A stretch of 64,000 nt of DNA, taken from NCBI RefSeq assembly GCF_988242995.1, contig NZ_OZ547043.1; one strand, written 5' to 3'. The notes below the pieces were generated by a model. That model did not search any database and was not told where the DNA came from. It saw nothing but the letters and a program-made list of their open reading frames with translations. Positions 49,257-57,215 of this stretch are shown here, piece by piece (the stretch's first letter is position 1; the number at the start of each line of letters is the position of its first letter). A program made the translations under genes and the position numbers.

Positions 49257-49370
49257 GGGGGCTCTGTTGGTTCTCCCGCAACGCTACTCTGTTTACCAGG
49301 TCAGGTCCGGAAGGAAGCAGCCAAGGCAGATGACGCGTGTGCCGGGATGTAGCTGGCAGGGCCCCCACCC
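49257..49370 (+). ncRNA. ffs: 4.5S RNA (signal recognition particle RNA)
   Basis: 114-nt sequence GGGGGCTCTGTTGGTTCTCCCGCAACGC...GGCAGGGCCCCCACCC matches the E. coli 4.5S RNA as I recall it, including the conserved SRP domain IV loop region (GGAAGCAGCCAAGGCAGA); located between atl and ybaA as in K-12. Confidence 0.95.
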
Positions 49371-51589: not shown

Positions 51590-52060
51590 TTAAGATGTTG
51601 ATTCGGCGCGAGCGAGGGTAAAAATATCGTAAAAAGACAGTTCACCTTTACGGACGATCATTTTTTGCAGTTGTTCTTTATGAACATCCGCGACACGCGG
51701 AGAGTTCAAGATGGCTTCAACCAGCGCGGCAGGTACAAAGCGCGTGTTGTACCATTCGCCGTTATAGCAAACGCGGAAATCCAGCACGTCGATATCTTCA
51801 TAGCGGTAGCGTGGGTAGACATCGAAAAAGAAGAAACCATTAAGCAGGATAAATAATACAACCAGTAGCCAGACAGAGCCTGAAAGCGTTTCGGACTGCA
51901 ACATCACCGCCAGGGTGGCAAAAAAAGCAACATACATACCGATAAACAGCCCCGGATGTTTACGGATAAAACTGATACTAAAGCGGGGTTTGTTGTCGCG
52001 TTTTTCGCGGGTATTTAGAGACTCAATTGTTTCGGTCAGCAGGCGTTGTATTTCGGTCAT
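51590..52060 (-). CDS. ylaC: Inner-membrane protein YlaC
   Basis: ORF 51590-52099; start at [27 protein letters not shown] (156 aa). Confidence 0.85.
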
Positions 52061-52175
52061 CGTTTGCCTTCGTGGTATCTGCAACTTTCCAGGGAACACC
52101 CTATTTTAACGTGGGAATAGTAGAGGGAAAGTAACAGATTTACCACAATTTTGCATAACAGTTGCGAAAAACCTA

Positions 52176-52727
52176 TTACAATTTTTTAATTATTCTGGCT
52201 GGATTACCGCCCACGACAACGTTGTCCGGGACATCTTTTGTGACAACTGCACCTGAGGCTACCACGACGTTATCACCAATGGTCACACCAGGGTTAATGA
52301 CCGCGCGTCCGCCAATCCAGACGTTATTACCGATGGTGACGGGTTTCCCCAGTTCAGCACCGCTATTACGTGCTACAGGGTCGATGGGATGTGTTGCCGT
52401 GTAGATATGAACGCCTGGTGCCAACATACAGTTATCACCGATGCGAATAGGGCAGACATCAAGCATCACGCAATCGAAGTTGGCGAAAAAATTATTGCCG
52501 AGAAAAATGTTATAGCCATAATCACAGCGAAACGTTGGCTCAATATAAGCCTCTGTCACCTGACCGAATAAATCAGCGAGAATTTGCTGGCGTAATGTGT
52601 GCTCTTCCGCCAGGGAATGATTGTATCGGTGAATAAGCTGACGAGCGCGCAGGCGATCGCGAGATAACGTCTCATCTGCCGAGCGATACAACTCACCAGC
52701 AATCATCTTTTCTTTTTCTGTGCTCAT
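52176..52727 (-). CDS. maa: Maltose O-acetyltransferase (hexapeptide-repeat acyltransferase)
   Basis: 183-aa ORF with left-handed beta-helix hexapeptide repeats ([19 protein letters not shown]...[31 protein letters not shown]). Confidence 0.93.
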
Positions 52728-52898
52728 TACTGACCTCCGGTTGCTGAAAATGCGGCAACACAGTAAGACGAAAAGTCAGTGAAGAGAACGTTCCCATTAC
52801 ATCTGTGTGATAAAGATCACATAGGGTATGTCTTCATGGCGAAAAAGTATAAAATTCTTAATAAACAGCCGGTTATAGCTCCGAAAGCGAATTATTTA

Positions 52899-53117
52899 TT
52901 AGCGAATAAATTTCCATACTGAGGAAGGGATCTTGTCGTACAGTTTATTCATGGTCAATTCGGCGAGGCGGTGATCTGCGGCTGAGTAAAATACCGCCAG
53001 TTCATTATCTGATAATTCGTATTTATTTTTCTCGATAACACGCTCCAGCGTGTCAATTGTCTGGCAACGACGTAAACGCATTAAATAATCGGTTTTTGTT
53101 AAAGGTTTTTCGGACAT
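52899..53117 (-). CDS. hha: Haemolysin expression-modulating protein Hha (H-NS co-regulator)
   Basis: 72-aa internal frame of ORF 52899-53363 ([72 protein letters not shown]). Confidence 0.95.
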
Positions 53118-53142
53118 ACTTCTACCCATGGTTGTAATAATT

Positions 53143-53517
53143 CTAACAAGATAAACTCGCAGGATTCTCTTTCGTCGCATTGACAAAACAACGGAATAGT
53201 CGATTACCTGACTTCCGCCATTTCTGAAGATCCTGCATATTAATACCATAACTGCTGAACAACATAAAGGTGTCATCCAGATATTCGTCGATCTGCTCAA
53301 TGAGCTTATTGTCTTCATTATACTTAATTTTGTAATTAAGTGCGAAGGTCGCAATATGCTCAATCAGTTCATTCAACTGGAGGTTGATCGCCGAGGTTGG
53401 GTCGTTAACCCAGCCATGATTGCTTTCTTCAAGGTTTGCAAGACAGTCATGATACAGGGTTTCACAGAGAAACTTAAGCTGTGCGATATCATGTCTTTTG
53501 GGTGAGTATTCATCCAT
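53143..53517 (-). CDS. tomB: Hha toxicity modulator TomB (YbaJ)
   Basis: 124-aa ORF immediately upstream of hha on the same strand. Confidence 0.9.
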
Positions 53518-54021
53518 AACGCGTCCCCTTCTTAGTGGTTGAACTAACGGACACCTTTCGGGATGGAAAAAACTTACTGACCTGGACTTGCCCTCTCGTT
53601 TGTTAGCTTAACTATAAGCCACTCTTTGCAGGTTTTCATCGCATTATTACGAAAAATTACAATTAGGAAGGAAGCGGGACAGGACTTACTTTTTCATACT
53701 AGCACTAACCCGCAGCAGGTAAAAGCAGTTTGCTCGAACTGTTCATAACATTTCAGGATTATCGCCAGATGAAATTGGTAACACTAATACCAGGATTGCT
53801 CTGAATATGACGTAATAACCGAGGAATGAATAAAGAATTACCGCAAATAATTAAGAATAGCCTCTAAATGATTATGGATTATTAAATCTATTAGCGCTAC
53901 TTAATATAAATTAACTAACAATCAGTATTTTTTATGAATTTTAAACGTGTTTAATACTGGTTTTCGTATGAGATCCTGAGTTGGTGGTTCAATGACTTCT
54001 TAATGTTCGTCGGTTATGCAT

Positions 54022-54043
54022 AAAAAAGGCCGCTTGCGCGGCC
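54022..54043 (-). terminator. Rho-independent terminator after acrB
   Basis: ggccgc-ttgc-gcggcc hairpin followed on the minus strand by tttttt, 20 nt downstream of the acrB stop. Confidence 0.7.
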
Positions 54044-54062
54044 TTTGTGATTACACGTTGTA

Positions 54063-57215
<3,153 letters not shown>

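Follow-up and report, generated by a model that had tools for sequence, protein, structure and literature searches.

The stretch of DNA analysed here, referred to as the window, is 64,000 nucleotides long and contains the genes tomB and hha, which lie next to each other on the minus strand and are separated from acrB by an AT-rich spacer. The two genes and the gap between them are as follows:

52899 to 53117, minus strand: hha, 72 amino acids (aa), ATG start; Hha is an H-NS co-repressor, also known as the 'toxin' of the Hha/TomB pair
53118 to 53142, minus strand: tomB-hha intergenic gap, 25 nt
53143 to 53517, minus strand: tomB (ybaJ), 124 aa, ATG start, TAG stop; attenuator of Hha toxicity

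The product of hha is matched over its full length by the Pfam HHA family (PF05321; E=8e-40, 135.3 bits against a cut-off of 25), as well as by the NCBIfam Hha profile (1.7e-50, 169 bits against a cut-off of 90). All 72 of its residues are the same as in the E. coli K-12 Hha of PDB entries 1JW2 and 2MW2, and 71 of 72 agree with the Salmonella Hha that was solved in complex with H-NS (4ICG). TomB gives full-length profile matches to the Pfam YbaJ family (PF10757; E=1e-65, 220 bits against a cut-off of 25) and to the NCBIfam TomB equivalog (3.8e-70, 234 bits against a cut-off of 108), it matches the NMR structure of YmoB (2MN2) with E=2e-50, and its gene stands directly upstream of a co-directional hha. 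The residues associated with H-NS binding and redox control of Hha, Asp48 and Cys18 (their roles are described in PMC4519777 and PMC5155140), are both present in the window sequence, as is Cys18 of TomB. [quoted passage not shown]

In the RefSeq annotation of a genome that is 99.5% identical over 24 kb, hha and tomB are placed at the same coordinates, and the gene order is maa-hha-tomB-acrB-acrA-acrR-mscK. No terminator was found within the gap at 53118-53142, which fits co-transcription of the two genes. Several candidate features were rejected. The Pfam and NCBIfam E-values speak against hha and tomB being chance open reading frames (ORFs), a 154-aa ORF with a TTG start at 52899-53363 is a mere upstream extension of the hha reading frame, and the sole terminator candidate between hha and maa, at 52802-52825, is a weak match on the opposite strand. 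The sequence-only reading had described tomB (124 aa) and hha (72 aa) as adjacent and co-directional, with a 545-bp AT-rich spacer up to acrB. The first description is confirmed by the ORF list, the sequence and the profile matches, and the second is exact. At some distance from the pair, the SRP RNA gene ffs lies at approximately 49266-49362, between the MGMT-family gene (ybaZ) and ybaA in the closest annotated genome; consequently, the ORFs listed over that stretch are spurious.

The acrB gene occupies 54063-57212 on the minus strand. The spacer between it and tomB (53518-54062) has a GC content of 37.4%, against 50.8% for the window, and the block comprising the operon and the spacer (52728-54062) has 38.9%. 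The acrB-tomB spacers of five genera were aligned (alignment A1), and the following features were recognised in the spacer of the window:

53525 to 53530, minus strand: tomB Shine-Dalgarno sequence AAGGGG, invariant in the five genera of A1
53611 to 53639, minus strand: sigma-70 promoter of tomB-hha, ATGAAA-17-TATAGT, from a consensus scan and a conserved block of A1
53646 to 53660, minus strand: CpxR-like box GTAATTTTTCGTAAT, a direct repeat one helical turn apart, just upstream of the tomB -35 hexamer
53774 to 53788, unstranded: PdhR-box-like palindrome ATTGGTAACACTAAT, with 1 mismatch to the PdhR operator ATTGGTNNNACCAAT
54022 to 54043, minus strand: acrB intrinsic terminator, GGCCGC-loop-GCGGCC followed by a T run, hairpin invariant in five genera

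The alignment shows an invariant terminator hairpin, followed by approximately 350 bp of poorly conserved AT-rich DNA and by a conserved block that ends at the tomB Shine-Dalgarno sequence. Transcripts of acrB end at the terminator, which keeps acrAB transcription apart from that of tomB-hha, and the pair is transcribed from its own sigma-70 promoter at 53639-53611. The position of this promoter implies a tomB-hha 5' UTR of roughly 85-90 nt. A genomic SELEX study of constitutive RpoD promoters (PMC3946193) reports identical hexamers for tomB-hha and an H-NS flag on the spacer. No RNA family was supported by an Rfam scan of 52000-54500 (E<=1); a uxuA-RNA match on the acrB terminator, at 26.5 bits, stays below the gathering score of 66.8 and is attributed to chance.

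The CpxR-like box is of the type GTAAT-N5-GTAAT and resembles the CpxR box GTAAA-N5-GTAAA, with two mismatches to the consensus. Of minor interest to the specialist is that the box recently tested in Yersinia matches base for base in other genera: the 15-mer GTAATTTTTCGTAAT occurs unaltered in E. coli, Salmonella, Cronobacter and Apirhabdus, and carries 2 changes in Erwinia. A scan of the window with the CpxR consensus gave 57 matches against 50 expected, which is the chance frequency. Consequently, the box draws its credibility from its conservation across genera and from the EMSA in Yersinia only. A 2026 study (PMC13353760) found that CpxR~P binds the promoter of the orthologous Yersinia ymoBA genes and that CpxR activation raises promoter activity, with the YmoA protein level unchanged. 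The same study cites a machine-learning prediction for E. coli tomB, which partly anticipates a CpxR reading of this promoter. Taken with this work in other strains, the sequence makes a CpxR input to tomB-hha through the conserved box probable.

A second regulatory input may come from PdhR. The PdhR pattern occurs 2 times in the window against 0.18 expected, and the other match is the perfect palindrome ATTGGTATAACCAAT at 23920-23934, located in a 600-bp low-GC tract (23651-24250, 38% GC) that is presumably the upstream region of the cyo operon, judging by K-12 gene order. The box at 53774-53788 shows no conservation in the other genera of A1. Direct control of tomB-hha by PdhR has been reported (PMC3265435), and a PdhR input would apply to the window as well, given the sequence and the results from other strains.

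The conservation of the locus was assessed at the level of complete genomes and of gene neighbourhoods. A 1.4-kb locus query matches 5424 of the 5426 complete E. coli genomes, nearly always as a single chromosomal copy and with a nucleotide identity of 95-99.9%, and the TomB of the window shares 98% identity with the cluster most frequent in E. coli. Loci in other genera were located through TomB homologues, after which the contigs encoding them were inspected. In Apirhabdus, the order mscK-acrR-acrA-acrB is followed by a 691-bp spacer, tomB-hha and then a ybaZ/ybaY/tesB/amtB/glnK block. The acrB-tomB spacer measures 495 bp in Salmonella, 463 bp in Cronobacter and 846 bp in Mangrovibacter, with tomB-hha next in each case. 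Across six other loci tomB is directly upstream of hha, and the gap between the two genes is 25-29 nt in five other genera. Erwinia amylovora has the same neighbourhood, except that acrB and tomB are separated by an rpmE2/rpmJ2/znu-type insertion. This insertion (L003, positions 2140-5214) encodes rpmE2/rpmJ2-like ribosomal protein paralogues and a ZnuABC-type transporter, as well as a 117-aa ORF, not assigned to a family, just upstream of tomB.

The acrB-tomB-hha order is therefore ancestral and vertically inherited across several enterobacterial genera. The sequence-only reading had presented the pair as 'retained' beside acrAB, a framing that proves uninformative: near-universal presence in E. 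coli and ancestral synteny in several genera mean that the word says nothing about the strain of the window, and the notion that the pair was retained together with the islet described below can be dropped. In the databases, about a dozen proteins of approximately 185-205 aa (P0005, P0010, P0026, P0048 and others) contain YbaJ and HHA domains together. Most of them are 90-100% identical to E. coli TomB and appear to be TomB-Hha fusions, which would require a frameshift or an indel that bridges the stop codon and the 25-nt gap. Since these proteins come mostly from read-archive assemblies, they may reflect errors of sequencing or rare mutants.

By itself, Hha does not bind DNA; it docks on the N-terminal domain of H-NS or StpA. 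In this way it strengthens the silencing of some AT-rich genes, most of them acquired, and does so mainly where the coding sequence is covered by H-NS. That Hha acts as an H-NS partner on AT-rich acquired DNA, as the sequence-only reading had stated, is established (PMC3686432, PMC4764244). Binding of Hha to the chromosome requires H-NS or StpA (PMC3686432). In the same study, 134 genes are upregulated in the hha ydgT mutant; 131 of these, acquired genes for the most part, belong to the hns stpA regulon of 583 genes.

The H-NS co-repressor Hha is itself under negative feedback by H-NS. This follows from three properties of the operon: it is AT-rich (39% GC), it is bound by H-NS in K-12, and its hha gene is de-repressed in an hns mutant. 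In K-12 ChIP data (PMC4720273, S2 Table), hha and maa are H-NS-bound, and pgpA and yajO are not; deletion of hns raises hha expression by a log2 value of 1.41 (PMC3686432). We infer the same feedback for the strain of the window; the identity of the sequences justifies this transfer from K-12.

Hha/TomB is, in addition, classed among toxin-antitoxin systems, because TomB reduces the activity of Hha through an oxygen-dependent oxidation of its Cys18. TomB and YmoB promote air oxidation of this residue, which destabilises Hha, and their interaction with Hha is transient; this type VII activity (Cys18 oxidation and relief of growth inhibition) was demonstrated for E. coli Hha with YmoB (PMC5155140). 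It is unlikely, however, that the pair is mainly a stress-responsive module of type VII, oxygen-sensitive and in control of growth arrest, persistence and the dispersal of biofilms, and not chiefly a silencer of acquired virulence DNA. Such a role would agree with the toxicity of overproduced Hha and its oxygen-dependent counteraction through Cys18 oxidation (PMC5155140), with a persister phenotype in Salmonella (PMC5133643), and with the antitoxin-first gene order and short gap, which suit a toxin-antitoxin operon. However, the pair is single-copy, vertically inherited and syntenic across genera, unlike mobile toxin-antitoxin modules, and no stable toxin-antitoxin complex forms. The description as a classical type II system does not fit either, since the locus is core and syntenic rather than patchy and the published interaction is transient. 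Moreover, the two views are not exclusive, toxicity being a consequence of the regulatory activity of Hha at high dose. With a transient interaction, no stable complex and toxicity upon overexpression, Hha/TomB is an atypical bearer of the toxin-antitoxin label.

Almost certainly, the interval represents the tomB-hha operon of the chromosome, which belongs to the ancestral core genome of the Enterobacteriaceae and lies downstream of acrAB, with the regulation set out above. As such, it is a textbook core operon that is already known: its promoter, H-NS binding, PdhR control, structures and redox mechanism have all been published.

The sequence-only reading had also linked hha to an AT-rich effector islet located elsewhere in the window. 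The islet is real and consists of the following elements:

7405 to 9382, minus strand: O-island 26 (OI-26) islet, between pgpA and yajO, with espY3 as its single gene
7581 to 9152, minus strand: espY3, 523 aa, intact, a pentapeptide-repeat type III secretion system (T3SS) effector gene

The islet has a GC content of 34.3% against 50.8% for the window, with a minimum of 25% over 300 bp, and no other low-GC tract of the window is as long; the espY3 coding sequence has 32.5%. It is present in 936 of the 5426 complete E. coli genomes. Low GC and variable presence among strains are what would be expected of 7405-9382 as an acquired, H-NS-silenced islet. In EHEC O157:H7, the only gene of OI-26 is the T3SS effector gene espY3 (PMC8565820), and the islet is now identified as OI-26/espY3. 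The EspY3 of the window is 92% identical to O157 EspY3 at the amino-acid level and approximately 96% at the DNA level. The closest copies of the islet (at least 99% identical) are found in non-O157 strains, where the gene is annotated only as 'pentapeptide repeat-containing protein'. In ST405, espY3 orthologues have been reported alongside ETT2 eiv genes.

As a factor that works in trans, Hha may contribute to silencing of the espY3 islet 44 kb away, although this is a generic prediction. Hha is the same protein as in islet-free K-12 and is present regardless of the islet; consequently, the locus itself neither supports nor tests the link. Silencing by H-NS is plausible given the 34% GC of the islet and the binding of H-NS to all effector genes of O157 Sakai, where H-NS ChIP-chip (PMC4764244) identified about 440 loci of low GC content, among them every effector gene examined. 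Occupancy of the espY3 islet by H-NS is accordingly rated as likely. A requirement for Hha/YdgT in its silencing is more doubtful, if still a realistic possibility. Neither the EspY3 paper nor the supplements of PMC4764244 contain H-NS, Ler or Pch data for espY3 (ECs0472), and the tables of PMC4720273, whose coverage is restricted to K-12 orthologues, contain no espY3 data. The high-affinity H-NS motif TCGATAAATT, with up to 2 mismatches, has a density of 4.0 per kb within the islet, compared with 1.47 per kb for the window and 0.75 per kb for the hha block. These densities are suggestive for the islet but are confounded by AT content, and the motif is therefore not used as evidence.

Two alternatives to an Hha-dependent silencing of the islet have to be weighed. 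The first places the silencing with H-NS/StpA alone, with no measurable contribution from Hha/YdgT, and its chances fall only a little short of even. The link drawn between hha and the islet in the sequence-only reading would then be wrong, despite H-NS binding to the islet. In K-12, Hha/YdgT is needed by 122 of 558 H-NS/StpA-repressed genes, the other 436 being independent, and among genes with H-NS binding over a single coding sequence 12 of 37 are dependent and 25 of 37 independent; in addition, H-NS binding profiles are barely altered in an hha/ydgT mutant (PMC3686432). However, the islet is AT-rich over the full coding sequence, and genes of this kind are over-represented among those that depend on Hha/YdgT (88% of the dependent genes have H-NS binding in the coding sequence). 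The one locus-specific hint against H-NS/StpA acting alone comes from an O157 strain cured of a plasmid that carries hha and stpA homologues (PMC3667801). Curing changed the expression of six T3SS genes associated with LEE, one of which is espY3, and the plasmid is described as a repressor of ler and of those effector genes. The effect of plasmid curing on espY3 could be indirect, through ler, and complementation with hha was measured for espF and espH only.

The second alternative dispenses with silencing by nucleoid proteins altogether: the islet gene would be constitutive, or inert in a strain that has neither the LEE secretion system nor the regulators of that system. Flat espY3 expression across the tested conditions in one O157 transcriptome would be explained in this way, as would the presence of espY3 orthologues in non-EHEC lineages such as ST405 with ETT2 (eiv) genes. 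The window, which spans neither the LEE nor the ETT2 loci, contains no evidence of LEE. This alternative is nevertheless improbable, as a GC content of 34% over 2 kb, with a minimum of 25% per 300 bp, is well inside the H-NS-bound range, and every effector gene examined in O157 Sakai is bound by H-NS. For the contribution of Hha to H-NS silencing of the islet, the hypothesis now has a realistic prior. YdgT can mask a single hha mutation (PMC3686432), and the hypothesis is therefore testable with an hha ydgT double mutant and not with an hha mutant alone.

The promoter and the islet could also be connected through envelope stress. If the box at 53646-53660 were a working E. coli CpxR site, envelope stress would set the dose of Hha and thereby the depth of H-NS/Hha silencing of acquired genes, including the espY3 orthologue of this apparently non-O157 lineage. 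As a whole, this chain of events has only a slim chance of being correct. If true, Hha would gate an effector gene in a stress-tunable manner, in strains that possibly have no Ler/Pch anti-silencers. It is unlikely, however, that an effect of CpxR on silencing matters much for genes such as espY3.

Among the closest known systems is the tomB-hha locus of E. coli K-12 (ybaJ-hha, b0461-b0460), which has the same Hha, the same TomB length and family, the same promoter hexamers and the same neighbours, with maa downstream and acrB upstream. The window differs from it only by nucleotide changes at the strain level. The ymoB-ymoA genes of Yersinia are orthologous and share the two-gene order; the YmoA structure 2K5S matches the Hha of the window with E=4e-34. 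YmoA is known for its thermoregulated proteolysis. [quoted passage not shown] The identity between YmoB and TomB is 58%, as quoted in PMC5155140.

Hha-family genes are also found on the plasmids pO157_Sal and pO157. Their products belong to the same Pfam family, have H-NS/StpA as partners and repress LEE effectors (PMC3667801). These plasmid copies are mobile and variably present, and the pO157 and pO157_Sal copies share 37% amino-acid identity. The hha of the window, in contrast, is chromosomal, core and paired with tomB. Finally, the islet corresponds to OI-26 of EHEC O157:H7 (espY3, Z0521/ECs0472), with the same insertion point between pgpA and yajO and a single 523-aa ORF, and measures 1978 bp in the window against 1983 bp in O157:H7.
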